From Haliotis rubra (Eukaryota), in NCBI RefSeq assembly GCF_003918875.1, contig NW_025765324.1, positions 24,041 to 88,040 of the forward strand: a stretch of DNA of 64,000 nucleotides, in the 5' to 3' direction. Position 1 is the first letter of the stretch; each line of letters begins with the position of its first letter. A program made the position numbers and the translations under genes. Below, one piece after another: positions 1 through 37,199 of this stretch. The notes beneath the pieces were generated by a model. It was given only the letters and a program-made list of their open reading frames with translations. It did not search any database and was not told where the DNA came from.

Positions 1-2084
1 TTTCTCTTCTCTCTACGGCATGGTTTAACTGCATTTAAACAACTTCCAGTTACCCAACGTTTAACCAGTATTAAGCAAATATTAGATAGTAGTTTGGGAG
101 CTGTGTATCCATTACACATGTAATGGAGCAATGTAAAATCAGACATTATGATATATGTGCCTGAGACGAAATTACAAAATACGGGGCAATTGAAGCAACG
201 CGCTAGTACAGCGTCGCCACACTACAGCAGTATCACTGTGCTACAAGGGGTCACTATGCAAACATCTACGTGTAATACTGCAGCCTGTCCACACGATGAC
301 TGCATGCTTACTATACTGCAGAAATCCCAATACCCTAATATTCTCCCCGAATGTTAACAATCTCACCACACTGAAACAAAATACTACAATAGCTTTATTT
401 CCCAAATGTTATATACATATACTAGTGTCTTTTCACCAAGGGCCTGTCACTATCAATTGTCACAGCACGCATTTAGCTGTGTAAAACAAAGCACCGATGT
501 CTTCTGAAAACAGGATTAGGTTTCCCCTATGACATACAGCATGTTCCCTGGTATTTGTCGACTTTTCTTTGCATGTGTTTCTCACTGGTGTAGCAGAGGG
601 GTTAGGATACACTCACCTCCTTCGCGAACACTTTGTGTCATCACTATTTGATAGAAAGTCATGCACACTTTCCTAGGATATAGTCACAATCGTACAGTGG
701 ACTCTGCCTTTAGTGGATATTCCTGACAATTACATAAAGGGTTGTGTCGCTTTATTTTACACCTATTTTCTTTGAAGTAACTGTGGATTTCTTAATGATA
801 TCGATCTTCTGATGAAACAGAATTCGCTAATCATAAAGGGAACAATTGTACTGAAACATATACTGCTTATTAGCCAAGACACCAGGTGCTAGCCAACAGT
901 TTGTGGCTGTAAATTCGTTTTAATGTTTCATGACCTTTCCATTCGGTCCTTCTTGTGCCAAATTAAATAGATGTTGTCTTTGGATAATGGCTCAACAATT
1001 GCTACAATTCAATGTATATTTAATCACTGTTGCAAGTGATTCACTTCAACTTGTTTTAGGCTTCCGGAGAATGTTTGATCATAAACACCAGTAGAAAGAA
1101 GAAATAGAAAACTCGCCTCTACCCTTTACATATGGCCTTTACATCATGAAAACAGTCTTCTGTGTGTTCATAGATAATGTTACTGTTGCGTTAAAATCAA
1201 TCGTGTCCGATTTGATAAATCTGTACTTTTGATAGTGCATCCAGATAGAAATACTTCTCCTGTTAATTGCATCAGCGGTATGCAAACGGTTAGATTACAT
1301 CATGAAATCAAGAAGTAAACTTCCCATGGAGTGTACAAAATGATTGGTATTGCCATCAACTGTTATCGACTATTCATAGCATGTTCAATAGTAACTTATG
1401 ATTGTAGACCTTTTCATTTTGTTTGTGTGATACATAAACCGATAGCATATGCTAATGTAATGAAATTCCAACTGCTACGCAATCCCTTCTAGTATAGGCA
1501 GTAAGAATACTACAGCATGTGTTTGTTATTTATTCTTCAAGACCATGGTATCAATATTTGTTATCACAGAAACTTAGATATTCATCATCCAAAGGACAAT
1601 GCGTGTTCCGTAAAGAACACTCGCTCAATTTCTAGGACAGGTTACATACTTGCATTCGAATCGAATACTGTGCACACTAGCTACTATTAGATGACTTACT
1701 GCACCCCAACACGGAAATATGACTCAACTCCGGATATTTTCGGATTTCACTATGACATCATCAAGACCCTTCGTGGCAGCACAAATGGTATATTCGCATG
1801 AGACATGGAACCAAGTAAGAGATAGCCTGTATGAAATATGTCAAGCCTAAAATCCCTCCTCTCATATTCAATCTGATTTCGTCAGGACATTCTAAGCATA
1901 TTTCATTAGTTGACACCACTGCTGGAAGCAAAACTGATTACCAGTTAAGTGTTTGGATATCGTTGAATAACACATATATCCAGAGTTAATAATATGGAGA
2001 CATATAGTAACTCGTCCATTTTGTAAACATTGAATTCAGCTTTAAGATTCTCAAACAAAGCACAAATCGTTTGTATTTCAAGTT

Positions 2085-2090
2085 TTATTG
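2085..2090 (-). terminator. AATAAA poly(A) signal of Gly-rich gene copy 1, about 65 nt after the stop. Equivalents lie at 5445-5450 (-), 8788-8793 (-) and 15932-15937 (+).
   Basis: A canonical hexamer in the same position in all four copies. Confidence 0.5.
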
Positions 2091-2155
2091 AACCAATTGT
2101 ATTGTCATGAGTATACAAAATAAATAGTCTTCTTCACACTGCAGGTGACAGTAAC

Positions 2156-2761
2156 TCAGTAGTAGCCGATTCCTGAAACAGAAAAAATAGTTACATATAA
2201 AATTGGGATTTATGGAAAAGTAACATGGAAATGTTGAAACTGCTTGCACCATAAACTATACCAAGCATTTCAAACAGCTGACAACAGTTTTACAGATGTT
2301 TATCAACTGACAACAGCTTATTTGCATAAAATAGTACTAATAAATACATGGGTACATGATATCATTTTATAAAAGTGAAGTTTAAAATGGGATAACAGAA
2401 GAAAGAATGACAGCATGTGTTGTGAAATACCTTTTCCTAGTCCGATTCCGTAGCCTGCCATTCCGTAGAGACCACCATGGCCTCCAAGTCCTCCAAGTCC
2501 TCCAAGTCCTCCATACAGACCTCCCATGCCGTATCCGTATTTGCCTCCGTACAGACCGCCCATTCCTCCGTACAGACCGCCATAGCCTCCGTAAAGACCT
2601 CCCTGCATTCCACCTATTCCGTAGCCTATTCCGCCCATTCCGCCCATTCCGCCCATTCCTCCATACAACCCAGCCATTCCATATGCTCCATACAGACCGG
2701 TTGGCTCAGCAAAGGCGGTAACAGCCAGGCAGGCAACAAGGACGACGACTATTTTCATCAT
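2156..2761 (-). CDS. Secreted Gly/Tyr/Met-rich low-complexity protein (shematrin/prisilkin-like), copy 1. Exon 1 is 2761..2431, exon 2 is 2172..2156, and the product is about 115 aa.
   Basis: ATGATG lies at 2761-2756 (read on the minus strand). The N-terminus MMKIVVVLVACLAVTAFA-EP is a typical signal peptide. The body is GLYGG/GMGG/GLGG repeats. A GT donor sits directly after ...GLGKG (the codon is split g|gt). An acceptor ctgtttcag at 2181-2173 is followed by gaatcggctactactga, which yields ...GIGYY*. The in-frame C-terminus fits the repeat style of the protein. The antisense ORFs over this region are low-complexity artefacts. Confidence 0.7.
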
Positions 2762-3320
2762 TTTGAGTATCTGTTCAGTAACATAAAAATCATCTTCAAG
2801 ACAGGAAAACAACATGTTATCATTACTCGTCTGGAGAATTGACTTCACGCCACTCCTAATGAATAATGTTATCATTTGTCATTTCATATGCATCCACATA
2901 CTGGAAAATTTACAAGAACGGTAAATATTCCTTACTTATTCGTACTTTGATGAATTGGATCAATGTAAAAGTTGAAAAAGGAGAGGTGTGCAGCAGAAGA
3001 ACGAAAACTTCAAAGTATACATGTTTACCACAGGCAAACCTTGACCTGGTACTTACAGTTTGGTGTTAACACGTATCTGTGTCTTAACAGCAGGTGAAAA
3101 TAAGAGATGATAGAATACTTTCCCCTCTCCTATATATATACAATTGGTGGACTATATGTGATTGATTTACCTTGGGCTGGCCACTTCCAGGTAAGCAACA
3201 CACCTTAACGTTAATGATGTAAACTGATCATTCTATTCGCCTCAAAGGTTCTGCCTGAGGTTATCACCCTAAGGCTATACATGTGTGTTGGTATAGATGA
3301 ACGTTCATTTAGGAAGTAGA

Positions 3321-3334
3321 GGGCGGTATATAAT
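3321..3334. promoter_or_regulatory. GC-box (GGGCGG) directly abutting a TATA-like box (TATATAAT) at the unit 1/2 junction. Equivalent motifs lie at 6667-6680, 10017-10030, 14391-14410 and 14736-14750.
   Basis: Perfectly conserved in every unit. It lies about 560 bp upstream (on the minus strand) of the Gly-rich CDS and about 160 bp upstream of a strong donor site (caag|gtaaat, exon end 3171). This suggests a non-coding first exon and a 5'UTR intron. The TATA box is near-palindromic, so the orientation cannot be fixed from sequence alone. Confidence 0.45.
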
Positions 3335-5515
3335 AGGGCGAAGGTGTCTCTTCCTATCTTTCTCTCTCTCTACGGCATGGTTTAACTGCATTTAAACAAC
3401 TTCCAGTTACCCAACGTTTAACCAGTATTAAGCAAATATTAGATAGTAGTTTGGGAGCTGTGTATCCATTACACATGTAATGGAGCAATGTAAAATCAGA
3501 CATTATGATATATGTGCCTGAGACGAAATTACAAAATACGGGGCAATTGAAGCAACGCGCTAGTACAGCGTCGCCACACTACAGCAGTATCACTGTGCTA
3601 CAAGGGGTCACTATGCAAACATCTACGTGTAATACTGCAGCCTGTCCACACGATGACTGCATGCTTACTATACTGCAGAAATCCCAATACCCTAATATTC
3701 TCCCCGAATGTTAACAATCTCACCACACTGAAACAAAATACTACAATAGCTTTATTTCCCAAATGTTATATACATATACTAGTGTCTTTTCACCAAGGGC
3801 CTGTCACTATCAATTGTCACAGCACGCATTTAGCTGTAAAAAAACAAAGCACCGATGTCTTCTGAAAACAGGATTAGGTTTCCCCTATGACATACAGCAT
3901 GTTCCCTGGTATTTGTCGACTTTTCTTTGCATGTGTTTCTCACTGGTGTAGCAGAGGGGTTAGGATACACTCACCTCCTTCGCGAACACTTTGTGTCATC
4001 ACTATTTGATAGAAAGTCATGCACACTTTCCTAGGATATAGTCACAATCGTACAGTGGACTCTGCCTTTAGTGGATATTCCTGACAATTACATAAAGGGT
4101 TGTGTCGCTTTATTTTACACCTATTTTCTTTGAAGTAACTGTGGATTTCTTAATGATATCGATCTTCTGATGAAACAGAATTCGCTAATCATAAAGGGAA
4201 CAATTGTACTGAAACATATACTGCTTATTAGCCAAGACACCAGGTGCTAGCCAACAGTTTGTGGCTGTAAATTCTTTTTTAATGTTTCATGACCTTTCCA
4301 TTCGGTCCTTCTTGTGCCAAATTAAATAGATGTTGTCTTTGGATAATGGCTCAACAATTGCTACAATTCAATGTATATTTAATCACTGTTGCAAGTGATT
4401 CACTTCAACTTGTTTTAGGCTTCCGGAGAATGTTTGATCATAAACACCAGTAGAAAGAAGAAATAGAAAACTCGCCTCTACCCTTTACATATGGCCTTTA
4501 CATCATGAAAACAGTCTTCTGTGTGTTCATAGATAATGTTACTGTTGCGTTAAAATCAATCGTGTCCGATTTGATAAATCTGTACTTTTTGATAGTGCAT
4601 CCAGATAGAAATACTTCTCCTGTTAATTGCATCAGCGGTATGCAAACGGTTAGATTACATCATGAAATCAAGAAGTAAACTTCCCATGGAGTGTACAAAA
4701 TGATTGGTATTGCCATCAACTGTTATCGACTATTCATAGCATGTTCAATAGTAACTTATGATTGTAGACCTTTTCATTTTGTTTGTGTGATACATAAACC
4801 GATAGCATATGCTAATGTAATGAAATTCCAACTGCTACGCAATCCCTTCTAGTATAGGCAGTAAGAATACTACAGCATGTGTTTGTTATTTATTCTTCAA
4901 GACCATGGTATCAATATTTGTTATCACAGAAACTTAGATATTCATCATCCAAAGGACAATGCGTGTTCCGTAAAGAACACTCGCTCAATTTCTAGGACAG
5001 GTTACATACTTGCATTCGAATCGAATACTGTGCACACTAGCTACTATTAGATGACTTACTGCACCCCAACACGGAAATATGACTCAACTCCGGATATTTT
5101 CGGATTTCACTATGACATCATCAAGACCCTTCGTGGCAGCACAAATGGTATATTCGCATGAGACATGGAACCAAGTAAGAGATAGCCTGTATGAAATATG
5201 TCAAGCCTAAAATCCCTCCTCTCATATTCAATCTGATTTCGTCAGGACATTCTAAGCATATTTCATTAGTTGACACCACTGCTGGAAGCAAAACTGATTA
5301 CCAGTTAAGTGTTTGGATATCGTTGAATAACACATATATCCAGAGTTAATAATATGGAGACATATAGTAACTCGTCCATTTTGTAAACATTGAATTCAGC
5401 TTTAAGATTCTCAAACAAAGCACAAATCGTTTGTATTTCAAGTTTTATTGAACCAATTGTATTGTCATGAGTATACAAAATAAATAGTCTTCTTCACACT
5501 GCAGGTGACAGTAAC

Positions 5516-6103
5516 TCAGTAGTAGCCGATTCCTGAAACAGAAAAAATAGTTACATATAAAATTGGGATTTATGGAAAAGTAACATGGAAATGTTGAAAC
5601 TGCTTGCACCATAAACTATACCAAGCATTTCAAACAGCTGACAACAGTTTTACAGATGTTTATCAACTGACAACAGCTTATTTGCATAAAATAGTACTAA
5701 TAAATACATGGGTACATGATATCATTTTATAAAAGTGAAGTTTAAAATGGGATAACAGAAGAAAGAATGACAGCATGTGTTGTGAAATACCTTTTCCTAG
5801 TCCGATTCCGTAGCCTGCCATTCCGTAGAGACCACCATGGCCTCCAAGTCCTCCAAGTCCTCCATACAGACCTCCCATGCCGTATCCGTATTTGCCTCCG
5901 TACAGACCGCCCATTCCTCCGTACAGACCGCCATAGCCTCCGTAAAGACCTCCCTGCATTCCACCTATTCCGTAGCCTATTCCGCCCATTCCGCCCATTC
6001 CTCCATACAACCCAGCCATTCCATATGCTCCATACAGACCGGTTGGCTCAGCAAAGGCGGTAACAGCCAGGCAGGCAACAAGGACGACGACTATTTTCAT
6101 CAT
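5516..6103 (-). CDS. Gly/Tyr/Met-rich secreted protein, copy 2. Exon 1 is 6103..5791, exon 2 is 5532..5516, about 109 aa. It has one fewer GMGG and one fewer GLGG than copy 1.
   Basis: Same structure as copy 1 at an offset of about 3360 bp. It differs from copy 1 only by in-frame 9-nt repeat-unit indels. Confidence 0.7.
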
Positions 6104-8859
6104 TTTGAGTATCTGTTCAGTAACATAAAAATCATCTTCAAGACAGGAAAACAACATGTTATCATTACTCGTCTGGAGAATTGACTTCACGCCACTCCTA
6201 ATGAATAATGTTATCATTTGTCATTTCATATGCATCCACATACTGGAAAATTTACAAGAACGGTAAATATTCCTTACTTATTCGTACTTTGATGAATTGG
6301 ATCAATGTAAAAGTTGAAAAAGGAGAGGTGTGCAGCAGAAGAACGAAAACTTCAAAGTATACATGTTTACCACAGGCAAACCTTGACCTGGTACTTACAG
6401 TTTGGTGTTAACACGTATCTGTGTCTTAACAGCAGGTGAAAATAAGAGATGATAGAATACTTTCCCCCCTCTCCTATATATATATACAATTGGTGGACTA
6501 TATGTGATTGATATACCTTGGGCTGGCCACTTCCAGGTAAGCAACACACCTTAACGTTAATGATGTAAACTGATCATTCTATTCGCCTCAAAGGTTCTGC
6601 CTGAGGTTATCACCCTAAGGCTATACATGTGTGTTGGTATAGATGAACGTTCATTTAGGAAGTAGAGGGCGGTATATAATAGGGCGAAGGTGTCTCTTCC
6701 TATCTTTCTCTTCTCTCTACGGCATGGTTTAACTGCATTTAAACAACTTCCAGTTACCCAACGTTTAACCAGTATTAAGCAAATATTAGATAGTAGTTTG
6801 GGAGCTGTGTATCCATTACACATGTAATGGAGCAATGTAAAATCAGACATTATGATATATGTGCCTGAGACGAAATTACAAAATACGGGGCAATTGAAGC
6901 AACGCGCTAGTACAGCGTCGCCACACTACAGCAGTATCACTGTGCTACAAGGGGTAACTATGCAAACATCTACGTGTAATACTGCAGCCTGTCCACACGA
7001 TGACTGCATGCTTACTATACTGCAGAAATCCCAATACCCTAATATTCTCCCCGAATGTTAACAATCTCACCACACTGAAACAAAATACTACAATAGCTTT
7101 ATTTCCCAAATGTTATATACATATACTAGTGTCTTTTCACCAAGGGCCTGTCACTATCAATTGTCACAGCACGCATTTAGCTGTAAAAAACAAAGCACCG
7201 ATGTCTTCTGAAAACAGGATTAGGTTTCCCCTATGACATACAGCATGTTCCCTGGTATTTGTCGACTTTTCTTTGCATGTGTTTCTCACTGGTGTAGCAG
7301 AGGGGTTAGGATACACTCACCTCCTTCGCGAACACTTTGTGTCATCACTATTTGATAGAAAGTCATGCACACTTTCCTAGGATATAGTCACAATCGTACA
7401 GTGGACTCTGCCTTTAGTGGATATTCCTGACAATTACATAAAGGGTTGTGTCGCTTTATTTTACACCTATTTTCTTTGAAGTAACTGTGGATTTCTTAAT
7501 GATATCGATCTTCTGATGAAACAGAATTCGCTAATCATAAAGGGAACAATTGTACTGAACACATACTGCTTATTAGCCAAGACACCAGGTGCTAGCCAAC
7601 AGTTTGTGGCTGTAAATTCGTTTTTAATGTTTCATGACCTTTCCATTCGGTCCTTCTTGTGCCAAATTAAATAGATGTTGTCTTTGGATAATGGCTCAAC
7701 AATTGCTACAATTCAATGTATATTTAATCACTGTTGCAAGTGATTCACTTCAACTTGTTTTAGGCTTCCGGAGAATGTTTGATCATAAACACCAGTAGAA
7801 AGAAGAAATAGAAAACTCGCCTCTACCCTTTACATATGGCCTTTACATCATGAAAACAGTCTTCTGTGTGTTCATAGATAATGTTACTGTTGCGTTAAAA
7901 TCAATCGTGTCCGATTTGATAAATCTGTACTTTTGATAGTGCATCCAGATAGAAATACTTCTCCTGTTAATTGCATCAGCGGTATGCAAACGGTTAGATT
8001 ACATCATGAAATCAAGAAGTAAACTTCCCATGGAGTGTACAAAATGATTGGTATTGCCATCAACTGTTATCGACTATTCATAGCATGTTCAATAGTAACT
8101 TATGATTGTAGACCTTTTCATTTTGTTTGTGTGATACATAAACCGATAGCATATGCTAATGTAATGAAATTCCAACTGCTACGCAATCCCTTCTAGTATA
8201 GGCAGTAAGAATACTACAGCATGTGTTTGTTATTTATTCTTCAAGACCATGGTATCAATATTTGTTATCACAGAAACTTAGATATTCATCATCCAAAGGA
8301 CAATGCGTGTTCCGTAAAGAACACTCGCTCAATTTCTAGGACAGGTTACATACTTGCATTCGAATCGAATACTGTGCACACTAGCTACTATTAGATGACT
8401 TACTGCACCCCAACACGGAAATATGACTCAACTCCGGATATTTTCGGATTTCACTATGACATCATCAAGACCCTTCGTGGCAGCACAAATGGTATATTCG
8501 CATGAGACATGGAACCAAGTAAGAGATAGCCTGTATGAAATATGTCAAGCCTAAAATCCCTCCTCTCATATTCAATCTGATTTCGTCAGGACATTCTAAG
8601 CATATTTCATTAGTTGACACCACTGCTGGAAGCAAAACTGATTACCAGTTAAGTGTTTGGATATCGTTGAATAACACATATATCCAGAGTTAATAATATG
8701 GAGACATATAGTAACTCGTCCATTTTGTAAACATTGAATTCAGCTTTAAGATTCTCAAACAAAGCACAAATCGTTTGTATTTCAAGTTTTATTGAACCAA
8801 TTGTATTGTCATGAGTATACAAAATAAATAGTCTTCTTCACACTGCAGGTGACAGTAAC

Positions 8860-9455
8860 TCAGTAGTAGCCGATTCCTGAAACAGAAAAATAGTTACATA
8901 TAAAATTGGGATTTATGGAAAAGTAACATGGAAATGTTGAAACTGCTTGCACCATAAACTATACCAAGCATTTCAAACAGCTGACAACAGTTTTACAGAT
9001 GTTTATCAACTGACAACAGCTTATTTGCATAAAATAGTACTAATAAATACATGGGTACATGATATCATTTTATAAAAGTGAAGTTTAAAATGGGATAACA
9101 GAAGAAAGAATGACAGCATGTGTTGTGAAATACCTTTTCCTAGTCCGATTCCGTAGCCTGCCATTCCGTAGAGACCACCAAGTCCTCCAAGTCCTCCAAG
9201 TCCTCCATACAGACCTCCCATGCCGTATCCGTATTTGCCTCCGTACAGACCGCCCATTCCTCCGTACAGACCGCCATAGCCTCCGTAAAGACCTCCCTGC
9301 ATTCCACCTATTCCGTAGCCTATTCCGCCCATTCCGCCCATTCCGCCCATTCCTCCATACAACCCAGCCATTCCATATGCTCCATACAGACCGGTTGGCT
9401 CAGCAAAGGCGGTAACAGCCAGGCAGGCAACAAGGACGACGACTATTTTCATCAT
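8860..9455 (-). CDS. Gly/Tyr/Met-rich secreted protein, copy 3. Exon 1 is 9455..9134, exon 2 is 8876..8860, about 112 aa.
   Basis: Same structure as copies 1 and 2. It lacks the HGG motif and has a different count of Leu-Gly-Gly units. Confidence 0.7.
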
Positions 9456-9989: not shown

Positions 9990-12900
9990 TAGATGAACGT
10001 TCATTTAGGAAGTAGAGGGCGGTATATAATAGGGCGAAGGTGTCTCTTCCTATCTTTCTCCTCTCTCTACGGCATGGTTTAACTGCATTTAAACAACTTC
10101 CAGTTACCCAACGTTTAACCAGTATTAAGCAAATATTAGATAGTAGTTTGGGAGCTGTGTATCCATTACACATGTAATGGAGCAATGTAAAATCAGACAT
10201 TATGATATATGTGCCTGAGACGAAATTACAAAATACGGGGCAACTGAAGCAACGCGCTAGTACAGCGTCGCCACACTACAGCAGTATCACTGTGCTACAA
10301 GGGGTCACTATGCAAACATCTACGTGTAATACTGCAGCCTGTCCACACGATGACTGCATGCTTACTATACTGCAGAAATCCCAATACCCTAATATTCTCC
10401 CCGAATGTTAACAATCTCACCACACTGAAACAAAATACTACAATAGCTTTATTTCCCAAATGTTATATATAAGGTTCTGCCTAGGGTTATTACCCTAAGG
10501 GCATACAAGAGTGTTGGTATACATGAACAGTCACTTAAGGTTGCTTCACACTTATTTCGAATTTACAGCAATCGGGGAGAATCGGCCAGAAAAAAATAGT
10601 TCCAAAATTCGAACCGCATTCGTGAGACAATTTTTTCAAGCTTTGCTATCTGACGTTTCTGTGACAGATGGTGACGTTTTTATGCGATTCGGCGGTGTTC
10701 TGATGACGGCAGGGCTCATTTGAAGAGCATTCGGGACATTCTGAATGCATTCCAGGTGTATTCGAGGTACATTGGAGCTGTATTTCAACTTCAATCGAAA
10801 TGTTCCGATACATTTGAAGAATATTTGAACTCCAGCAGCAATCAAGATACATTCCGACTCATTCGAGGCATTCTGACAGGATTTGAAGTGGCTTGTCTTT
10901 TCTATTCTCCCTCGAATATGTTCAGATTACTTAGAATGCAGTCAGAATGCAGTAAGAATACTTAGAATGCAGTTCGAATGCACCTCAAAAGCCGGTCGAT
11001 ATTTTTCCACTTCGAATGTACCTCGAAAGTTTTGAACATGTTCAAAACATTCGGGCATATTATATTACATGAATTGACCCGAATAGTTGGAATGCATTCG
11101 GAATGCAGTAAGAAGTTTTAGAATTCAGTTCGAATATCCAGGAATCTCCAGAAATTTTCATTCCGACAGCATTCCGGCTCATTCCGCCGTAATGTACTAC
11201 GAGTGAGACTTTAATAAACCTGTGTGTCTGCCGTATGTACAGCCGGTTAATGAAGCAAAAACAAGTACAATTACCTAATCCGTTATCGATAATTGATGTT
11301 CGGAGTCGGAGACTGAAGCATCGGATTAATGAATCAACAATTGATGTGTTTCTACAGTAAATAAGATTGGTTACAGCTTGAGTCAGTTCAGATAGCGAGG
11401 GAATCGGATTATTGGGGACCGGACTAAGGCGGCCTGACTGTATTATTATTCCGGCGTTTTTACTTCCAATCATAACTCAAGAACCAATTAGATGCGTTTC
11501 CAAAACATCATCAAGGTGCCCCTGCAGTCCCGTAGCACGTAAGAGTAAGGAGAGAAAAGGAAAACATGATTCCTTGAAGCCAAGGAGCCATATTGATTAA
11601 GTCGTATCACCAGCGGGCTGTGCAAACACCGTTCGGTTCAGCTAAGGCCACTAAAGAGAAAGTGCCCTTGACAGTTGGAACAACGGGTTCTTGTTCCTTA
11701 AGAATATTTTTCCCGTGGTATCAAATTATATTCTATGATCCATTATTATGAGCTGTGAAAGAAATTGAATCCAAATCAAATCACATAACTTCTATTTGTA
11801 AATCTCTACACTGGAATCATGTTCCATCTCACAATAACTTTCATATCATCCGAATTCTCAAAGGGTAACCTGGTACTAAAGGACCAATTCACATATAGAA
11901 CACGGAGCCTACATCGCTGCTCTCAGCTATATTTTGACCTGAAATTGAATTATTAAAATCAATTTTGAATTATCTGCCCTTTGTCCTTGAACCTTGAACC
12001 TTGAACCTAGAGATGTTTGTGGTAAGCTTCAGGAACAGGTACACCTTGTTGTTTTTGTGATGAGATTCTGACCTCTGTTTTTTTAGTATGATTGGAACAA
12101 AAAACGGCGGAATAATGATACTAATAAATAATAAATCGAACGATTACAATAGGACTCCTGCCTTTCAGGCATGGAGCCCTAAAAAAATACAGAAAAGGAC
12201 AAAAGACAACACATATGAAAACTATATTCCAACTATCTCTCCAACAAAGGTCGTATCTTCACAAAACAATATAGCGGTATCAGTAACAATTTCTGGTGTC
12301 TCCCGCCGTGATATTGCTGGAATATTGCTAAAAGCGGCGTAAAATCATACTCACTCACTCACTCACTCACAAAACAACATAGCGGTATCAGTAACGATGC
12401 ACATGGTTATAATATCACATATGTAGATGAAAGTTTCTTCTACGTAAAAGAAGGGATCTTCTATGTAGATGAAAGTATCTTGTTTGTTTTAGTTCAACAC
12501 CGCACTCAGCAATATTGTGCACAACCATGTGACTGCTGTCTCTAAATAATCGAGTATGGACCAGATATTGTGTGGACCAGAGACTCACTTCATGGGCATC
12601 GATCTACGCATCTGTAATACGATGTCATGCATCAACCAAGGCGGCGAGCCTGTGACCACCCAATCTCGTGGTCACAGCATGTGTTGATGAAGTCCAATTC
12701 AGACCCGGGAAAGAGAGTGAGTTTAGTTTAACGCTGCACCCAGCAATATTCCAGCTATCTGTAAATAATCGACTCTGGAATTCATACCTGGATCTTCACG
12801 GGTAATCACTTACGTAGATAAAAGTGTCTTCAACGTAGATGAAAGTATCATCTACTTAGACGAAAGTATCTTTAAAGAAGGTGACAAAAACAATGAAGAC

Positions 12901-14428
12901 TATGACCTCAAAAACGGTTCCATAAAATAGTTTATGAAGCGGAGTAAAATGTCCGTCTTCGGTTCATTGAAATTAGCGAGGGGACAGAAAGTTGACTTCG
13001 ACTGCCGCTGGTGTCGAGCCTGATAACAACGTGTCAACGGGGCCAAGTTCGAATCTAAGGCTTAAGGAACTGCCACTCCGAGAGAAAATTCTTGTACCAG
13101 GAGTGAATCCCACGAATAGGGTAGAGTCTAACATTGCCAGAAAACTACTCATCCGCTGGTGCCTCAGAAGCCCTGATCGAGATGCTCTATTACATACCGC
13201 CCTCTACTTCCTAAGACCCCCGTCACACAATTACGGCGGAATGAGCCGGAATGCTGTCGGAATGAAAATTTCTGGAGATTCATGGAAATTCGAACTGAAT
13301 TCTAAAACTTCTTACTGCATTCCGAATGCATTCCAACTATTCGGGTCAATTCATGTAATATGCCCGAATGTTTTGAACATGTTCAAAACTTTCGAGGTAC
13401 ATTCGAAGTGGAAAAATATCGACCGGCTTTTGAGGTGCATTCGAACTGCATTCTAAGTATTCTTACTGCATTCTGACTGCATTCTAAGTAATCTGAACAT
13501 ATTCGAGGGAGAATAGAAAAGACAAGCCACTTCAAATCCTGTCAGAATGCCTCGAATGAGTCGGAATGTATCTTGATTGCTGCTGGAGTTCAAATATTCT
13601 TCAAATGTATCGGAACATTTCGATTGAAGTTGAAATACAGCTCCAATGTACCTCGAATACACCTGGAATGCATTCAGAATGTCCCGAATGCTCTTCAAAT
13701 GAGCCCTGCCGTCATCAGAACACCGCCGAATCGCATAAAAACGTCACCATCTGTCACAGAAACGTCAGATAGCAAAGCTTGAAAAAATTGTCTCACGAAT
13801 GCGGTTCGAATTTTTGGAACTATTTTTTTCTGGCCGATTCTCCTCGATTGCTGTAAATTCGAAATAAGTGTGAAGCAGCCTTAGTGACTGTTCATGTATA
13901 CCAACACTCTTGTATGCCCTTAGGGTAGGTAATAACCCCAGGCAGAGCCTTATATATAACATTTGGGAAATAAAGCTATTGTAGTATTTTGTTTCAGTGT
14001 GGTGAGATTGTTAACATTCGGGGAGAATATTAGGGTATTGGGATTTCTGCAGTATAGTAAGCATGCAGTCATCGTGTGGACAGGCTGCAGTATTACACGT
14101 AGATGTTTGCATATTGACCCCTTGTAGCACAGTGATACTGCTGTAGTGTGGCGACGCTGTACTAGCGCGTTGCTTCAATTGTCCCGTATTTTGTAATTTC
14201 GTCTCAGGCAAATATGTCATAATGTCTGATTTTACATTGCTCCATTACATGTGTAATGGATACACAGCTCCCAAACTACTATCTAATATTTGCTTAATAC
14301 TGGTTAAACGTTGGGTAACTGGAAGTTGTTTAAATGCAGTTAAACCATGCCGTAGAGAGAGGAGAAAGATAGGAAGAGACACCTTTCGCCCTATTATATA
14401 CCGCCCTCTACTTCCTAAATGAATGTTC
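9990..14428. repeat. Large palindrome. The left arm (about 9990-11192) and the right arm (about 13226-14428) are inverted copies. The spacer (about 11193-13225) is about 2 kb.
   Basis: Identical ORF pairs appear on opposite strands: 10720..10965(+) = 13453..13698(-), 10636..10845(-) = 13573..13782(+), 10202..10411(+) = 14011..14220(-), and 9907..10200(-) = 14222..14422(+). The symmetry centre is about 12209. Each arm consists of unit-junction sequence plus a ~727-bp GAATG/CATTC-rich low-complexity segment (10466-11192). Confidence 0.9.
12478..12812 (-). mobile_element. Two diverged, partly deleted SINE-A copies in the palindrome spacer. A SINE tail fragment (ctggaatattgctaaaagcggcgtaaaa + (ACTC)n) also lies at 12312-12370.
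   Basis: They match the SINE-A consensus seen at least 12 times in the window. Short gtagatgaaagt subrepeats flank them. Confidence 0.6.
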
Positions 14429-14633
14429 ATGTATAAATGCGAGTAGTGACTATTGTTAGTGACAGTCCATTTTGGTAAAATAGATACCTGTACATGTATG
14501 TAACATACAGCCAGTATAGTCGTGGGATTGTTGACATTCAGGGTGAATATCATGCTGTTGGGATTTCTGCAGAGTAGTAAGCAGGCGGTCATCGTGTGGA
14601 TTGACTGCAGCATCAAACGTAGTGATACTGCTA

Positions 14634-14727
14634 GAGAGAGAGAGAGAGACAGAGAGAGAAGGAGAGAGAGAGGGAGAGAGAGAAAGAGAGAGAGAGAATG
14701 AGAGAGTGAGTGATAGAGAGAGAGAGG
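14634..14727. repeat. (GA)n microsatellite.
   Basis: A direct run of agagagag. Confidence 0.95.
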
Positions 14728-15294
14728 AGCACTCTATTATATACCGCCCTCTACTCCCGAAATGAATGTTCATGTATACCAACACACATGTCCACCCTCA
14801 GGGTGATAACCTCAGGCAGACCCGTTGAGGCGAAAACAAATGATCAGCTTACATCATTAACGTTAAGGTGTGTTGCTTACCTGGAAGTGGCCAGCCCAAG
14901 GTAAATCAATCACATATAGTCCACCAGTTGTATATAAAGGAGAGGGAAAAGGTATTCTATCATCTCTTAATCACCTGCTGTTAAGACACAGATACGCGTT
15001 AACACCAAACTGTAAGTACCGTTTCAAGGTTTGCTGTGGTAAATATGTATACCTTGAAGTTGTCGTTCTTCTGCTGCACAACTCTCCTTTATCAACTTTA
15101 CATTGGTCCAATTCATCAAAGTGCGAATAAGTAAGGCATCTGTACATTTGGAAGTATGTGGATGCACATGAAATAAAAAAATGATAACATTATTCATTAG
15201 GAGTGGCGTGAAGTCAATTCTCCAGACGAGTAATGATAACATGTTGTTTTCCTGTCTTGAAGATGATTTTTATGTTACTGAACAGATACTCAAA

Positions 15295-15866
15295 ATGATG
15301 AAGATAGTCGCCGTCCTTGTTGCCTGCCTGGCTGTTACCGCCTTTGCTGAGCCAACCGGTCTGTATGGAGCATATGGAATGGCTGGGTTGTATGGAGGAA
15401 TGGGCGGAATAGGCTACGGAATAGGTGGAATGCAGGGAGGTCTTTACGGAGGCTATGGCGGTCTGTACGGAGGAATGGGCGGTCTGTACGGAGGCAAATA
15501 CGGATACGGCATGGGAGGTCTGTATGGAGGACTTGGAGGACTTGGAGGCCATGGTGGTCTCTACGGAATGGCAGGCTACGGAATCGGACTAGGAAAAGGT
15601 ATTTCACAACACATGCTGTCATTCTTTCTTCTGTTATCCCATTTTAAACTTCACTTGTATAAAATGATATCATGTATTTATTAGTACTATTTTATGCAAA
15701 TAAGCTGTTGTCAGTTGATAAACATCTGTAAAACTGTTGTCAGCTGTTTGAAATGCTTGGTATAGTTTATGGTGCAAGCAGTTTCAACATTTCCATGTTA
15801 CTTTTCCATAAATCCCAATTTTATATGTAACTATTTTTTCTGTTTCAGGAATCGGCTACTACTGAG
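15295..15866 (+). CDS. Gly/Tyr/Met-rich secreted protein, copy 4, in the inverted unit. Exon 1 is 15295..15598, exon 2 is 15850..15866, about 106 aa (MKIVAV variant).
   Basis: ATGATG at 15295-15300. Donor g|gt at 15598/15599. Acceptor ctgtttcag at 15841-15849, then gaatcggctactactga. AATAAA at 15932-15937. A candidate 5'UTR acceptor ttactgaacag ends at 15285, 10 nt before the ATG. Confidence 0.7.
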
Positions 15867-17079: not shown

Positions 17080-17492
17080 CATCGACAACCCATCTGCAGA
17101 CAACCCATCTGCAGACAACCCATCTACCCATCTACAGACAACCCATCTGCAGTCAACACATCTGCAGACAACCCATCTGCAGACAACCCATCTACAGACA
17201 ACCCATCTGCAGTCAACACATCTACAGACCATCTGCAGACAACCCATCTACAGACAACCAACTGCAGATAACCCATCTGCAGTCAACGCATCTGCAGTCT
17301 ACCCATCTGCAGTCAACGCATCTGCAGACAACCCATCTGCAGACAACCCATCTGCAGACAACCCATCTGCAGTCAACCCATCTGCAGACAACCCATCTGC
17401 AGACAACCCATCTGCAGTTAACCCATCTGCAGACAACCCATCAGCAGTCAACCCATCTGCAGACAACCATCTGCAGACAACCCATCTACAGA
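17080..17492. repeat. Minisatellite with a 15-bp unit (cagacaacccatctg), about 27 copies.
   Basis: Visible periodicity. The ORFs 17058..17630 and 17053..17247 are artefacts of it. Confidence 0.9.
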
Positions 17493-17681: not shown

Positions 17682-18480
17682 TTATTGCCGCCTGATCCTG
17701 CGTCTCTGTCCACCATTGTAAGGCTGGTACCGACAACGGTTGAAGTCCACATGCCGAGCCATCTGTTCAAAGTTGTTGTTGCTGTAGGGATGCCACTGGA
17801 AGTTGTCCCTGGATCCAAGGTCTGTCACAAAGCTGCTGTTATCCATGATTTGGCCATACCCACAATCATTTCTCAGCTTCCTGTTGGTGTCCATTGTCTG
17901 TCTGTTTAGAGTGCCACGGTTTATGTTCATGGGGTTGATGTCCTTCAACATTCGGTTCACATCAAGGTTTAGTGGGCGACGTTGGGGCCGAACAGGCTGT
18001 TCCTGTCTGTTCAAAACCTGAGGCAATGCTCGGGAAGGAATGGTGTTACATCCAAAACGAAATATCTCCGGGTTCTTTTCCTGGTTTTTCTGGACATTGC
18101 CAGGGAGATGGAAGCCCCAGGCATCCGAGATGTGAGTCAGCAGCAGGTTGGTAATGCGCCGATGAGCTGTCATGTCCCAGTGTATGCCGTCATCGGCACG
18201 GCGGTGAAGCTGATACCGCAGGAAGTAATGCAGGTCAAGAACATCAAAGTCATTTTCAACCACAACCTTGGCTGCATAATAGTTGGCTTCCAGGATGTCC
18301 AAACGCAGAGTGGAGTTCATGAATTCAATCTCAGGGATTATGAAACCACCCCGAGCATTCTTTGAAATGGGAAGTGTAGTGTTCCAGATGACCAGAGAGT
18401 CAGCAGGCAGCACCTCCTTGAACCGCCTGAACAATGTCTTCAGGTTCTCTTTGTACTCATCGATAGCTTTCACACCATAC
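17682..18480 (-). CDS. PCED1: PCED1-like terminal exon. It encodes (R)YGVKAIDEY…LVIWNTTLPI…FDVLDLHYF…DGIHWD…LLLTHISDAWGFHLPG plus a long C-terminal tail and stop.
   Basis: Acceptor ctgtgttgcag| with a phase-2 start at 18480. It carries conserved SGNH/PC-esterase block III (VIWNT) and the DxxH catalytic motif (DGIHWD). The stop is at 17684-17682. Confidence 0.85.
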
Positions 18481-19639
18481 CTGCAACACAGAAACGTATG
18501 ATCTAACCAAACACATACATTTGCACACAATCACTGAACAGGTCACTAAGTGTGGCAGCTCTTGGTCTGTACAGGTCCCAAGCAACCAAAGCTGGACAAC
18601 GTAACAGATGAGGTAGTCGGGCAGGGTGACCTGGTTGCTTGCATGTCATCATACACCATTGGTAAAGATCTTTGCTCATGACATCAATAAATGGATTGTA
18701 TGGTTTGGACTTAAAGGGACACAGACCTTTGTATTTCTCCAAGACTGGTTGTTGCCTTTGTTGTATTTTTAATGTTGACCAGCAAATCGACCAAGGGCAG
18801 CTAATGAGACCTCTCTGGCAGCTATAGACAGCCTGGGTAAAGCTTGGGATTAGTGCCCCTTTAATTATAATAATTACAGGCTTTATGATGTCACTGGAAT
18901 ACAGCCAAGTGTAGATGCTAACACTGTTATCAAGCAAGTGATAACGATGTTAGAATATACACTGAAACAGCACATCTATTGCAAAAAAGAAGTTGTCTAT
19001 CCATGAAATTATACCAGCTTCTAAATGCCACTTAAAGAAGTTATACTGCAAAGTGTGGCATTAGATCACACACAAACCCACAAACGAACAGCTTATCATT
19101 ATCTGTGAAGGATGAGGTGGTTGAACACTTAACAAGAATATTTTAAGATTGTAGTATTCATGTTAGGATAACAATCATTTCTGGATATGACCCGATGTAT
19201 CAGTGAATTACTAGTATTTACTTGGTCAGACACTAAAAAGACCCTCACCAAATCACAGCCATTTAGTTCGGTGTGGGTGGTAAAAAACTATGCTAGTTAA
19301 AGATGAATTATACAAGTTTGTTGGTTAGTTAATGTCACACTCAGCCGCATTCCAGATATATGACAGCATTTTCTAAATAATCAGTGACAGACTTCATGAG
19401 CATCGATCTACACAGCTGACATAACAAATACATTTAATCAGCGAAGTCACCAAGTCCTGTTAACTGCCTCTTTGGACAAACAAGGGTTGATGAGAAATAT
19501 TCTAACCAAGATTACCACTGACCGCCAAATTCAGTTGCCTCTTATGACCCTTTCAACCCAAGGCTCTTCAAGGCCTAGATTCATAAGCATTATCATTATC
19601 ACACAATACTTTAAGATTGACAATCATCATCTAAGTTAC

Positions 19640-20169: not shown

Positions 20170-21720
20170 AGCTTGATTTTAGACTAAGTGCAAATCGTTT
20201 CCATGGAAATCATGAAAAAAATAAATGACAAAAATCTGCGAATAGCAAAAGGCACCACTTTGGGATCTGCCTCACATATCTGCCAAGTTTTGCTGAAAGA
20301 TATCGAGATGTTTTTGAGTTGTGCTCCGGAAACGAAGCCCACCCCTCACTTTTGGGACTAAGTCCGAATCGTTTCCATGGAAACCGAAAATAAAAATGCC
20401 AAAATCTGCAAATAGCAAAAGGCACAACTTTAGGATGTGTTTGATATATCTACCAAGTTTTGTTGAAATATATTATAACGGTTTTTGAGTTGTGCTCGAA
20501 ACGAAAAGCAATCCTTACTTTTGAGACTAAGTCCAAAAATGTTTCCATGGAAACCAAGAAAAATAAAAATGCCAAAATCTGCAAATAGCAAAAGGCACAA
20601 CTTTAGGATCTGTTTGATATATCTACCAAGTTTTGTTGAAATGTTTTGAATGGTTCTTGAGTTATGCTCCGGAAACAAAGCCCACCCCTCACTTTTGGGA
20701 TAAAGTCCGAATCGTTTCCATGGAAACCGGGAAAAATAAAAATACCAAAAATCTGTGAAGAGCAAAAGGCACCACTTAAGGTTCTGTTTGATATATCTAC
20801 CAAGTCTTGTTGAAAAATATTAAACGGTTCTTGAGTTATGCTCCGGAAACGAAACCCGGCCCTTCCTTTTGAGACTAAGTCTGAATCATTTCCATGGAAA
20901 CCAAAAAAATAATAAATCACAAATATCTGCAAATAGCAAAAGGCACCACTTCAAGATCTGCCTCACATATCTGCCAAGTTTTGCTGAAAGATATTGAGAA
21001 GTTTTCGAGAAGTGCTCCGAAACGGCTTCCACCCTCACTTTTGGGACTAAGTCCGAATCGTTTCCATGGAAACCGGAAAAAATAAAATGCCAAAATCTGC
21101 AAATAGCAAAGGCACAACTTTAGGATGTGTTTGATATATCTACCAAGTTTTGTTGAAATATATTAAACGGTTCTTGAGTTATGCTCCGAAACAAAGCAAT
21201 CCTTACTTTTGAGACTAAGTCCAAAATGTTTCCATGGAAACCGGAAAAATAAAATGCCAAAAAATCTGCAAATAGCAAAAGGCACCACTGTAAGGTTCTG
21301 TTTCATACATCTACCAAGTTTTGTTGAAAAAATATTAAACGGTTCTTGAGTTATGTCTCGAAACGAAGCCCCACCCTCACTTTTGGGACTAAGTCCGAAT
21401 CGCATTCCATGGAAACCGGAAAAACATAAATGCCAAAAAATCTGTGAATAGCAAAAGGCACCACTTTAGGATCTGTTTGATATATCTACCAAGTTTTGTT
21501 GAAAAATACTGAACAGTTCTTGAGTTATGCTCCGGAAACGAAGCCCACCCTTCTTTAAGACTAAGTCCAAAACGTTTCCATGGAAACCGAGAAAAATAAA
21601 AATGACAATAATCTGTAAATAGCAAAAGGCACCACCTTAGGTTATGTTTGACATATCTACCAATTTGGGTTGAAAAATATCGAACGGTTTTTGAGTTATG
21701 CTCCGGAAACAAAATGATTA
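20170..21720. repeat. Satellite with a ~172-bp unit (…gtttccatggaaacc…ctgcaaatagcaaaaggcac…), about 9 copies, inside a PCED1 intron.
   Basis: The motif gtttccatgg recurs at 20196, 20371, 20541, 20714, 20889, 21061, 21228, 21404 and 21574. Confidence 0.9.
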
Positions 21721-25124: not shown

Positions 25125-25995
25125 CAGGGTCTCAATGACTTTCTTTACAGTGAGTCACTCATTAGGGTTTCAGATTTGTTCTATTACAGTGAGTCACTCT
25201 AACAGGTTTCAGATTTGTTGAAATTACAGTGAGTGACATAGCAGGGTTTCTGATTTGTAGCAATACAGTAGTCTTTGTCAGACAGAGTTTGTCTACAAAC
25301 TCTATGACAGTTTCAGATTTGTTCTTTTACAGTGAGTCACTCTATAGCAGGGTTTCAGATTTGTTCTTTTACAGAGAGTCACTCTATAGCAGGGTTTCAG
25401 ATTTGTTCTTTTACAGAGAGTCACTCAACTTCAGTATTTCAGATTTGTTCTACTACAGAGAGTCACTCTATTGCAGGGTTTCAGATTTGTTCTTTTACAG
25501 AGAGTCACTCAACTTCAGTATTTCAGATTTGTTCTACTACAGAGAGCCACTCTATAGCAGGGTTTCAGATTTGTTCTTTTACAGTGAGTCACTCTATAGC
25601 AGGGTTTCAGATTTGTTCTTTTACAGAGAGTCACTCTATAGCAGGGTTTCAGATTTGTTCTTTTACAGTGAGTCACTCTATAGCAGGGTTTCAGATTTGT
25701 TCTTTTACAGAGAGTCACTCTATAGCAGGGTTTCAGATTTGTTCTTTTACAGTGAGTCACTCTATAGCAGGGTTTCAGATTTGTTCTTTTACAGAGTCAC
25801 TCACTCTACTTCAGTATTTCAGATTTGTTCTATTACAGAGAGTCACTCTATTGCAGTATTTCAGATTTGTTCTACTACAGAGAGTCACTCTATTGCAGTA
25901 TTTCAGATTTGTTCTTCAACAGTGTCCCTATCTCTATAGAAGAGTTTCAGATTTGTTCTTTTTCTGTGAGTCACTCTTCAGCAGGGTTTCACTAA
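25125..25995. repeat. Minisatellite with a 42-bp unit (agcagggtttcagatttgttcttttacagagagtcactctat), about 20 copies, inside a PCED1 intron.
   Basis: Visible periodicity. The ORFs 25229..25939, 25332..26096 and 25515..25760 are artefacts of it. Confidence 0.9.
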
Positions 25996-26313: not shown

Positions 26314-28055
26314 GGCTACCTGAAACAAATATTACAAAGTATCTGATTCTGAAGTTGCAGGTTTCACTTTAATTAAAACACCTAAGGATTGTGTAGTTTC
26401 ATACGTCCTTACAATGAGATCAACGTAATGAACCACAGGAAAATACATAATTCCGGAAATATTAGGATTCGTAATTTAAATAAATAAACACCATTTATGA
26501 TTCTCCTAATTTTGATACAAAATCATAAAAAGACAAGGAATAACTATCTACCTTGCCCAATATAAAACCAAAAATAAGTGTTTCCTTTGCAGAAAGTAGT
26601 TATCTGTACATGCCCTAAAGTATACACCAATGTGAAACTGCTACTGTCGCCTGTTCATATTCAACTAAAACTAACCCGACAGATCAAATCGGTCAAGTAT
26701 TCAGGCGGTTCCCGGTCAACTGATCGCCTGTCGCCTATGTGAAACAGTAGGATTTAAAATCACTCGATTTTGAGAGAAAACATTACTAACATTTTGTTGT
26801 AAGTCAGTGACTGTGTAATCATGACAATTCCCAGTAATTCAAGGGAAAATGTAGGCTCCAAATTGTCAGCCATAAAGACGACGAGTGGCAGCATGCCAAG
26901 TGGTCGACAGTCTTTCTGATGACAGACGACTGGCTGGAAAACTAACTATCAAAAGCAACTTCTAAAACTATCGCGTAAGCTAAAAAACGTTCACAAGTCC
27001 TCTTCTCTTACCTGCAAAGTGGATTAACGTAAGAGACAATCGCAACCGACATTTGAATATGTTCAAAAACACAAATTGTGTACTGTCAGTATGACACTGA
27101 CAGGCCTTGGGTAGCCCATGGACGCACTTTGGCAACAAGGCTTCATTGGTGTTTAGCATTGTATACTTTGATCTCATTAAACTGGCGCTGGTAGCGCTGA
27201 CAACAATTAGAACAGCATGCATATTTCAACAAGTGGAACAGCACACATACACGGATTTACTTACCTATTGTATGTGATGTCACTCGTTTCTTTGGGATTT
27301 ACGAACATCGAAAGAAGTTCGGATGATATAACCTTGGAAGAGTCCATTTTGACAGCAGGGAGCGAGGGATAGTGAGTGTCACCTGTCATTCATCTTGGAC
27401 CGCTGTTCCATTACAAACATTGACATACGAACTTTACGTTACAAATTACTCAGGAATATATTCAAGTTTTGTTTTACCAAACTTAGGTGACCTGTCTTGT
27501 CTTTTTTAGAAAAAGCAGAATATGGGAGATTTCAGTTTTGAATAGGAATAGCACAGTGGACACAAGGTTCGGAACGGAGACTGTGCGTCAATCTTCAACG
27601 TAATGCATCTCAGTGAAGAACAATAACTCTCACAAATAAATTAATACATAATGGTCTTACATGCTGAAAATTGAAACAAACTAAATACTAGGATGTATTT
27701 AACGATGTTACCCAATTTCCGGGAAGTGTGTCAGAATACTTTAAAATCATCTCTTTTCTATCGGTGTAGAACTTAAAAACTCGATCTTTTATGTTTTTTT
27801 CATGTGACTGATATGAGATATATGAGATATTGGCTCAGCACCAACTAACATATAAAATATCCAAATCGGTTAGAAAGAAGACCGGTTCTCTGTGTGCCAA
27901 CTGTGGGACCGAAATTTGAAAAGCAATAACTATAATTGCTGTTGATTGTTGAAAGAAAACTATGCATACACTTGACCTTTCGCTTCAATTTCAAAGTTTT
28001 ACAACTTTCACTGTTACAGTGCAATATCTGTAAATATACTCATAGAAATGAATGA

Positions 28056-37020: not shown

Positions 37021-37199
37021 ATTCTGACCTAGTCTCTCGTACAGACCCTGAAGCAATTATATCCAAGAAAGCCCACGCAAGTCTAGAAAATGTGGCAAGT
37101 CTAGATTTCCTCAGCTTCAGGGCTCCTTTTCATTATATTATATTTTTCTTTACTATGAACATTTTTCAGTAAATTATGTTCATTTCAGAGACTAGTTGT

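Follow-up and report, generated by a model that had tools for sequence, protein, structure and literature searches.

Candidate core promoters and a likely 5'UTR intron upstream of a tandemly repeated abalone gene for a Gly-rich secreted protein

The window (the whole 64,000-nt stretch of DNA that was analysed) has a Haliotis-like sequence and carries a tandem array of units of ~3.35 kb. Each unit holds a three-exon gene whose product is a secreted Gly/Tyr/Met-rich protein. The units are repeated at 98 to 100% identity (~99%) throughout; the promoter-distal part of unit 4 is diverged (83%). Units 1 to 3 carry the gene on the minus strand, and unit 4 is inverted, with the gene on the plus strand and its ATG at 15295. 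The region between the coding exon and the unit junction is the ordinary 5' flank and control region of this repeated gene. The features are collected in Table 1.

In H. asinina, the orthologues of this gene form a tandem array that has been annotated ("glycine-rich protein-like", NCBI annotation, CM074540.1; P0001). The two arrays are alike in the signal peptide (89% identity, 24/27, in that region), the Gly/Tyr-rich repeats, the GIGYY C-terminus and the landmarks upstream of the gene. Exon 2 closes at the donor AAAAG/GTATTT (the slash marks the splice junction) at a position common with the annotated H. asinina CDS, so that the CDS intron is shared, and exon 3 agrees with the C-terminus and gene structure of P0001. 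The unit size is also similar (~3.2 to 3.35 kb, with a spacing of ~3.18 kb in H. asinina). The arrays differ in repeat number and share about 84% identity in non-coding sequence; this value, taken over ungapped columns, is the background for all comparisons below. An added inverted duplication and orphan promoter copies are found in the window only. A neighbouring PCED1A-like gene lies on the same H. asinina chromosome as the array, ~50 kb from it. In H. cracherodii, 10 kb downstream of the syntenic PCED1A-like gene, there is only a gene-less remnant of a unit, which is without the segment 3565 to 1918. From the homologue search came just two proteins, both H. asinina entries at NCBI, and nothing from Logan or RNA-seq; the second of them (P0002) is a 5'-truncated copy within transposon-like sequence, without the promoter. 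Metagenome scans with the exon-2 start and the signal-peptide coding sequence gave no match, an exact-product lookup of the nanos ORF gave no record, and a full-text literature search for peptide strings gave no match. The gene is not mentioned in the papers on abalone shell proteomes or on the H. iris genome.

Table 1. Features of the first unit and copies of the GC box plus TATA motif in the window. All start sites, both 5'UTR splice junctions and any factor binding are predicted.
Feature	Position	Strand	Remarks
Exon 3	2084..2172	-	codes ..GIGYY; stop 2158-2156; AATAAA 2089-2084
Exon 2	2431..2770	-	9-nt leader, ATG at 2761, signal peptide, Gly/Tyr/Met-rich repeats
Candidate 3' splice site ttactgaacag/	2771..2781	-	exon 2 from 2770; pyrimidine tract moderate
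Candidate first exon, proximal TATA	3057..3108	-	predicted start at A of TCATCT (3108); donor ACT/GTAAGT
Proximal TATA box TATATATATA	3131..3140	-	TATAWAWR match; inside the intron first proposed
Candidate first exon, distal TATA	3171..3298	-	predicted start at TCA, 34 nt after TATATA
Alternative donor AAG/GTGTGT	3204 (last exon base)	-	top generic score in the interval
Distal 30-nt core TTAGGAAGTAGAGGGCGGTATATAATAGGG	3309..3338	ambiguous	promoter element of the first-pass annotation
GC box + TATA copy, unit 2	6667..6680	+	exact 14-mer
GC box + TATA copy, unit 3	10017..10030	+	exact 14-mer
Degenerate copy GGGCGGTATGTAAT	13189..13202	-	1 mismatch (TATGTAAT); isolated ~30-nt core
Orphan GC box + TATA copy	14393..14406	-	exact 14-mer; end of right palindrome arm
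GC box + TATA copy, unit 4	14736..14749	-	exact 14-mer; (GA)n expansion adjoins far side

The first-pass annotation had described a GC box directly adjoining a TATA box at every unit junction. The 14-mer GGGCGGTATATAAT is indeed present at 3321-3334 on the plus strand, with GGGCGG at 3321-3326 and TATATAAT at 3327-3334, and an ETS-like AGGAAGT at 3311-3317 completes the parts of the distal core. Six copies of the core were found in the window. Two are orphans (14393 and 13189), and the copy at 13189 has neither a gene attached nor any flanking homology. At up to two mismatches the 14-mer has seven matches against 0.34 expected, an excess that arises only because it is located inside the ~3.35 kb repeated unit. 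The motif recurs in every unit as had been claimed, but its invariance is uninformative: since it sits inside a unit repeated almost without change from end to end, the copies are not independent and their agreement is no evidence of constraint.

The acceptor proposed earlier was found as described. The sequence ttactgaacag ends at 2771, 10 nt before the ATG, and is followed by atactcaaa. A 31-nt run over acceptor and ATG (2784-2754) is identical in all eight gene copies of the two species. The 100 nt before the acceptor contain four to five ATGs, so that stretch is unlikely to be part of the mature leader, and the ATG of the gene has no TATA at a workable distance. These features make it likely that a 5'UTR intron ends at 2771. 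If the coding exon is entered via this 3' splice site, the mRNA would therefore start with a short non-coding exon. The earlier proposal of a non-coding first exon spliced to the coding exon thus keeps its downstream half, likely splicing into 2771; its pairing of the distal TATA with a donor at 3171 is unsupported as stated. Trans-splicing to the acceptor was set aside as improbable, as gastropods are not known to use spliced-leader trans-splicing.

Two TATA-type core promoters 195 bp apart could each supply the first exon. We take 2771-3340 to be the 5' control region plus first intron and favour, tentatively, the proximal TATA for the main mRNA. The TATA at 3140-3131 would direct transcription from near 3108, the A of TCATCT; a first exon of ~50 nt would end at the donor ACT/GTAAGT after 3057, and an intron of ~286 nt would be removed to 2771, giving a leader of ~60 nt without upstream ATGs. 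The distal core at 3321-3334 would then act as an upstream alternative promoter or as the outward-facing half of a divergent pair, and the ~190-bp block between the TATAs may be shared regulatory sequence. In 8/8 copies the A of the invariant TCATCT (TCTATCATCTCTT) is preceded at 30 to 33 nt by a TATAWAWR match, despite (TA)n length variation; the box reads TATATAAA(GG) in unit 4 and in H. asinina. The predicted spliced leader (59 to 64 nt) has no ATG in any of the eight copies, even though its sequence has diverged considerably between the species (exon body 69% identical). Its donor, GTAAGT, is conserved and scores 6.1 (5.8 in H. asinina) with a generic matrix untrained on molluscs, which was used for all donor scores. 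By inspection, an unrelated H. asinina secreted-protein gene (L004, ATG at 15318) has the same layout: TATAAAA, ATCAGTC 31 nt later, the donor AAG/GTGAGT, an intron of ~330 nt and an acceptor 20 nt before the ATG.

Other observations speak against the proximal TATA. Cross-species identity is not in its favour, as the exon at 69% compares with 90% for the distal core and for 3243-3141 and with the 84% background, none of these differences being significant with two species. The exon side of its donor is poor (ACT or ATT) and the generic score is below those of the two upstream donors. The proximal TATA doubles as a variable (TA)n microsatellite, and an ATG-free stretch of 60 nt arises without selection with a roughly 1-in-3 chance. 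On balance, the second TATA, nearer the gene, appears to fit at least as well as the distal one, and the pairing proposed first is not the sole consistent reading and probably not the best. The layout resembles that of TATA plus initiator Pol II promoters with a non-coding first exon (beta-actin-type), in which the TATA stands ~30 nt before a TCA-type sequence, as here, and in which a short leader exon is followed by an intron of a few hundred nt ending a few nt before the ATG, as with either TATA. It differs in the two competing TATAs at 195 bp, in the GC box on the start-site side of the distal TATA, and in that the layout here is a predicted one. With the start and the 5'UTR intron mapped, this abalone family of tandemly amplified structural-protein genes would have a complete gene model, and mollusc transgenesis would gain a compact TATA promoter a few hundred bp long, possibly including an intron. 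Otherwise the result is routine annotation with no bearing on any open question; its main value is that the promoter-donor pairing of the first-pass annotation has alternatives.

That pairing makes the core at 3334-3321 the promoter of the gene, with a start near 3298, an exon of ~130 nt to 3171 and an intron of 400 nt to 2771. We regard it as doubtful. In its favour, the distal TATA is intact in 8/8 gene-linked copies of the two species, and the nearest initiator-like TCA is always 34 nt away, with varying bases after it (TCATCT, TCATGT and TCAAGT). The segment missing from the H. cracherodii remnant includes the distal core. The minus-strand donor caag/gtaaat is present with the exon end at 3171, has a conserved GT and scores 7.5; AAG/GTAAAT and aacag/ at the two ends of the intron 3170-2771 are both present in both species. 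Around this donor, identity between the species reaches 90% over 3243-3141, and one run of 28 nt there is perfect. The donor sequence claimed earlier is present, but it occurs at chance frequency and is neither unique nor the best-scoring. Elsewhere in the window each strand has 1.69 donors per kb that score at least as high; over the 560 nt from TATA to ATG this predicts about 0.95, and two were observed. The donor at 3204, 33 nt upstream, scores 9.4 (7.9 in H. asinina) and lies inside the 28-nt run identical between the species, and the conserved alternatives to 3171 comprise exon ends at 3204, 3057 (GTAAGT), 3029 and 2936. In unit 2 the donor at 3171 reads GTATAT and scores 4.5. The TATA-to-TCA distance of 34 nt also counts against this pairing, a start about 28-33 nt downstream being expected, and the predicted leader (137 nt) has two to three upstream ATGs, one of them conserved, and the exon is 86% identical to H. 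asinina against the 84% background. A full set of TATA, TCATCT and GTAAGT also lies inside the proposed intron.

The GC box weighs against the same pairing. It had been called conserved, which does not hold across species: two units of H. asinina read GGGTGG and two read GAGTGG, and GGGCGG is kept in the window species only. By comparison with Sp1/KLF elements, the GGGCGG of the window equals the GC-box core, and the GGGTGG of H. asinina matches the GT/CACCC-box variant bound by the same factor family. Unlike those elements, the box here abuts the TATA without spacing, is downstream of it for the minus-strand gene, and has decayed to GAGTGG in two of the H. asinina units. What separates the species is a CpG-to-TpG change, of the kind that neutral decay would produce. 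In gene orientation the box follows directly on the TATA and precedes the predicted start. Only for a plus-strand transcript, and not for the minus-strand gene, would it be upstream of the core promoter. Read on the gene strand, the sequence is TATTATATACC, in which TATATACC departs from TATAWAWR at positions 7-8, and TATATAAT on the plus strand fits better. TATA boxes can work in either orientation. The position of the GC box relative to the TATA would suit plus-strand transcription better.

The distal core may be read as a plus-strand promoter forming a divergent pair with the proximal promoter, which is compatible with the proximal TATA serving the main mRNA. AGGAAGT and the GC box would act upstream of TATATAAT, and a non-coding transcript would run from near C3358 into the ~2 kb spacer. 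We consider this unlikely. The ETS-like site, GC box and TATA are in the usual upstream-to-downstream order on the plus strand, TATATAAT is closer to the consensus than its reverse reading, and a pyrimidine-rich ATCTTT 31 nt downstream is retained in H. asinina. The orphan at 14393 has no gene and retains only ~38 nt on the gene side, whereas its plus-side flank is whole at 98%. Against this, the spacer has no ORF longer than 78 aa on the plus strand and no Rfam family match, no protein-coding gene is called in the H. asinina spacer, and spacer identity between the species is 70% with gaps, not above background. The adjoining CT/GA tract is a variable microsatellite.

It is quite unlikely that the GC box plus TATA motif is functionless, kept by the recent duplication of the units and by a divergence of only ~16% between the two species. 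The 98 to 100% identity of the units throughout would fit this, and the core is 90% identical (27/30) to H. asinina, which is not significant with two species because the background is 84%. TATAWA hexamers also occur at 1.4 per kb per strand in this AT-rich genome. On the other side, unit 4 retains the core through its diverged (83%) promoter-distal part, and no gene-linked copy has a change in the TATA octamer, while the bases flanking it vary.

Very unlikely, in our view, is the absence of a 5'UTR intron, with a TATA-less promoter in the conserved block 2850-2771 and a start a few tens of nt from the ATG. The species share 90% identity over this block, which has two conserved GATA-like sites (TGATAAC) and holds 2837-2807, one of the two longest perfect runs of the unit (the other being 2784-2754), and the pyrimidine tract of the acceptor is only moderate. 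There are, however, four ATGs in the 60 nt upstream of 2771, so a start more than ~20 nt upstream would give a leader laden with upstream ATGs. Neither a TATA nor an initiator is at a workable distance, and cag/AT stands exactly 9 nt before a well-contexted ATG, an arrangement that is conserved.

Three further candidates were rejected. A dispersed repeat or transposon end was discarded, the core being absent from the other three Haliotis loci. For a structured-RNA or Pol III gene, there was no Rfam match at the gathering score or at E<=1 save a chance SCARNA7 fragment, and there were no tRNAs. Finally, the spacer has a hairpin-like run of 28 conserved nt (4381-4408), but its fold is no better than that of shuffled sequence (z = 0.53).

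Highly improbable is the idea that the 30-nt ETS/GC/TATA core is a recurrent breakpoint or seed of locus rearrangements, or the outward promoter of a spacer lncRNA in every unit; under either role, if true, amplification and inversion of a structural-protein gene array would be linked to the activity of a promoter. The core does lie at the inner end of the inverted duplication, whose arms are 1.15 kb; it adjoins an expanding (GA)n tract in unit 4, and the isolated 30-nt fragment lies 15 nt outside that arm.

The first 10.4 kb of the window (~40% G+C; animal DNA) hold three head-to-tail units of ~3.35 kb with 98 to 100% identity, and a fourth unit, inverted and partly rearranged, lies at ~14.7–16.0 kb. 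Every unit contains a single small gene, which in units 1 to 3 lies on the minus strand. The product of 115 residues begins with a signal peptide, continues as Gly/Tyr/Met-rich repeats and has no match to a Pfam family. The coding exons of the four copies (2431-2761, 5790-6103, 9130-9455 and 15295-15600) vary in length by 9-nt indels in GGM and GGL repeats, the units being otherwise near-identical. The only database relatives are two H. asinina proteins named "glycine-rich protein-like" by NCBI (24/27 identity in the N-terminal signal-peptide region). The H. asinina gene likewise forms a tandem array (spacing ~3.18 kb) and its CDS intron is identical in placement. The family is uncharacterised but already annotated in abalone, and the outcome here is routine gene-structure annotation.

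Features of unit 1, copies of the distal core and identity between the window and H. asinina (slash, exon-intron boundary; scores from a generic metazoan donor matrix)
Feature	Position	Strand	Remark
ATG	2761	-	
Coding exon	2770-2431	-	ends at AAAAG/GTATTT
CDS intron	2430-2173	-	
Last exon	from 2172	-	encodes ..GIGYY; stop 2158-2156; AATAAA 2089-2084
Donor AAG/GTGTGT	exon end 3204	-	score 9.4
Donor ACT/GTAAGT	exon end 3057	-	score 6.1; conserved
Other conserved donor candidates	exon ends 3029, 2936	-	
Exact GGGCGGTATATAAT copies	6667, 10017		
Exact GGGCGGTATATAAT copies	14393, 14736	-	
TATGTAAT variant of core motif	13189	-	
Distal core	3338-3309		90% identity
Conserved segment	3243-3141		90% identity; includes 28-nt perfect run
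Candidate proximal exon	3105-3058		69% identity
Segment before acceptor	2850-2771		90% identity

The first-pass annotation proposed a TATA promoter whose short non-coding exon is spliced to the coding exon, here at 2770; this outline is reasonable and probably right. The acceptor ttactgaacag does end at 2771, followed by nine leader bases and the ATG. Four to five ATGs are found in the 100 nt upstream of 2771 (four of them in the nearest 60 nt), neither a TATA nor an initiator lies at a workable distance from the Gly-rich ATG, and cag/AT is placed nine bases ahead of a well-contexted ATG in all copies. On these grounds a 5'UTR intron ending at 2771 is probable. The upstream 720 nt were aligned for eight genes, four from the window and four from H. 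asinina, and one whole unit was aligned per species; background identity was 84% in ungapped columns, a comparison of two species having little power. The longest perfect runs in the non-coding unit (31 nt apiece) are 2837-2807, within the conserved segment before the acceptor, and 2784-2754, which covers acceptor and ATG. Segment 2850-2771 carries two TGATAAC motifs, and its strong conservation could reflect a regulatory element, either intronic or proximal; some room is also left for a TATA-less start near the ATG.

The pairing of the distal GC-box/TATA core (3321-3334) with the donor at 3171 is not established. A rival candidate promoter 195 bp closer to the gene is equally good or better. 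Inside the proposed intron, the gene strand reads TATATATATA at 3140-3131, with TATATAAA(GG) as the counterpart in unit 4 and H. asinina. In 8/8 copies a TATAWAWR match precedes the A of an invariant TCTATCATCTCTT by 30–33 nt, though the (TA)n length varies. From this A (3108) to the ACT/GTAAGT donor is ~50 nt; the intron would be ~286 nt, and the spliced leader would be 59–64 nt and free of ATGs in every one of the eight copies. An unrelated H. asinina secreted-protein gene (locus L004, CM074540.1 ~4.82-4.84 Mb; ATG 15318) has by inspection the same predicted layout: TATAAAA, ATCAGTC 31 nt on, AAG/GTGAGT, and a ~330-nt intron whose acceptor precedes the ATG by 20 nt. Its annotation gives CDS ranges only. 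However, the candidate exon (3108-3057) is the least conserved segment and the donor is weak on its exon side, and we put this assignment forward only tentatively.

The distal pairing is doubtful and the less likely of the two. Its elements are at the positions claimed: GGGCGGTATATAAT on the plus strand, and the minus-strand caag/gtaaat with exon end 3171, ~160 nt from TATA (GTATAT in unit 2). The donors at 3171 and 3057 and the 2771 acceptor are each conserved in H. asinina. Donors were scored with a matrix generic to metazoans and untrained on molluscs, and the background was measured over the 47 kb of the window outside the repeats. Donors scoring at least 7.5 (the score at 3171) occur at 1.69 per kb per strand, so ~0.95 is expected in the 560 nt from TATA to ATG; two were observed, the other being the higher-scoring donor at 3204. 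TATAWA hexamers occur at 1.4 per kb per strand. Given these frequencies, neither the distal TATA alone nor the 3171 donor alone is above chance.

The core was described as invariant in all units. The motif is present as described, but this invariance is uninformative on constraint, since the 3.35-kb unit is repeated whole; the excess in the window (seven matches vs 0.34 expected) merely mirrors that repetition. The gene is absent at two of six core copies: the 14393 copy has the entire plus-side flank and only ~38 nt on the gene side, and the 13189 copy is a lone ~30-nt core. The TATA octamer is undamaged in 8/8 gene-linked copies (four window, four H. asinina). The GC box, contrary to the proposed model, is not a conserved element (GGGTGG in two H. 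asinina units, GAGTGG in two), and the second GGGCG, across TATA from it, is GGGTG in H. asinina. Both differences are CpG-to-TpG changes, as expected from neutral decay. In gene orientation the element reads cgccc-TATTATATA-CCGCCC-tctACTTCCT, which puts the GC box and an ETS-like site downstream of TATA and ahead of the predicted start. The plus-strand order (AGGAAGT, GGGCGG, TATATAAT) is the usual upstream-to-downstream one, and TATATAAT is a closer match to the TATA consensus than TATATACC. On the gene strand, every copy has its nearest TCA 34 nt from the first T of TATATA, a slightly long spacing, and the sequence following this TCA differs between copies. The leader would be 137 nt with two to three ATGs, one of them a conserved uATG opening a short uORF. 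The remaining weight falls on other donor/promoter combinations or on no intron.

A divergent non-coding plus-strand transcript starting near C3358 is possible; C3358 is 31 nt past the T at 3327 and its ATCTTT context is retained in H. asinina. On the plus strand, where the first-pass annotation found no ORF, none downstream of TATA exceeds 78 aa. Searches found no Rfam family match and no tRNA, the H. asinina spacer has no annotated protein-coding gene, and spacer conservation between species is at background level. A 28-nt run, AGGTGTGTTGCTTACCTGGAAGTGGCCA (3178-3205), is identical in 8/8 copies of both species; it holds a T-box-like motif (AGGTGTG) and an ETS-like one (GGAAGTG), and on the plus strand reads as a perfect splice donor, CCAG/GTAAGC.

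An inverted duplication (10037-11193/13230-14385; 98% identity, ~2 kb spacer) begins right at the unit 3 GC/TATA core. Its right arm ends in the orphan core with just ~38 nt of the gene side (14389-14445), and the unit 4 upstream region is joined on there. The 28–30-nt core copy TTAGGAAGTAGAGGGCGGTATGTAATAGAG (13185-13214, minus strand) sits 15 nt beyond the right arm end, with no counterpart at the left arm and flanks lacking homology on both sides; it looks like a rearrangement footprint. Unit 4 (14590-15300; gene on the plus strand, ATG 15295) is 99% identical to units 1 to 3 from ~15179 on and only ~83% identical in its promoter-distal ~140 nt, a contrast which suggests that gene conversion homogenises the gene body but leaves the distal upstream part aside. 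In unit 4 a (GA)n tract of ~100 nt adjoins TATA.

A PC-esterase-domain (PCED1A-like) exon at 17682-18530 (87% identity to H. cracherodii, 85% to H. asinina) neighbours the array; these values place the window in a third abalone species. In H. asinina the PCED1A-like gene shares its chromosome (CM074540.1) with the Gly-rich array, in the same relative orientation. At H. cracherodii locus L002 (JAJLRC010000009.1), matches to window 3723-3565 and 1918-1719 directly abut (26668-27011), and the ~1.65-kb promoter and Gly-rich gene segment is missing at this site, 7–8 kb downstream of the PCED1A-like gene. One of the two H. asinina proteins (P0002, 123 aa; L004 10001-11465) comes from a 5'-truncated Gly-rich gene (3' half of the coding exon, intron and last exon) fused to unrelated upstream exons beside transposase-like sequence, and is therefore probably an annotation chimera or pseudogene.

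Elsewhere in the window, a 355-aa single-exon ORF (60561-61628, minus strand) has a Pfam match to the Nanos-type zinc finger (PF05741, E = 1e-22); the exact product has no record in the assembly collection. Long minisatellite arrays occupy 34437-38406, 48067-49906, 20177-21710, 25310-25991 and 17084-17492. One, in a block of 51% G+C, has a period of 31 and 129 copies; another, of period 30, shows an extreme skew in GC (-0.76). Further arrays have periods of 174, 42 and 15. Spurious long ORFs arise from these arrays.
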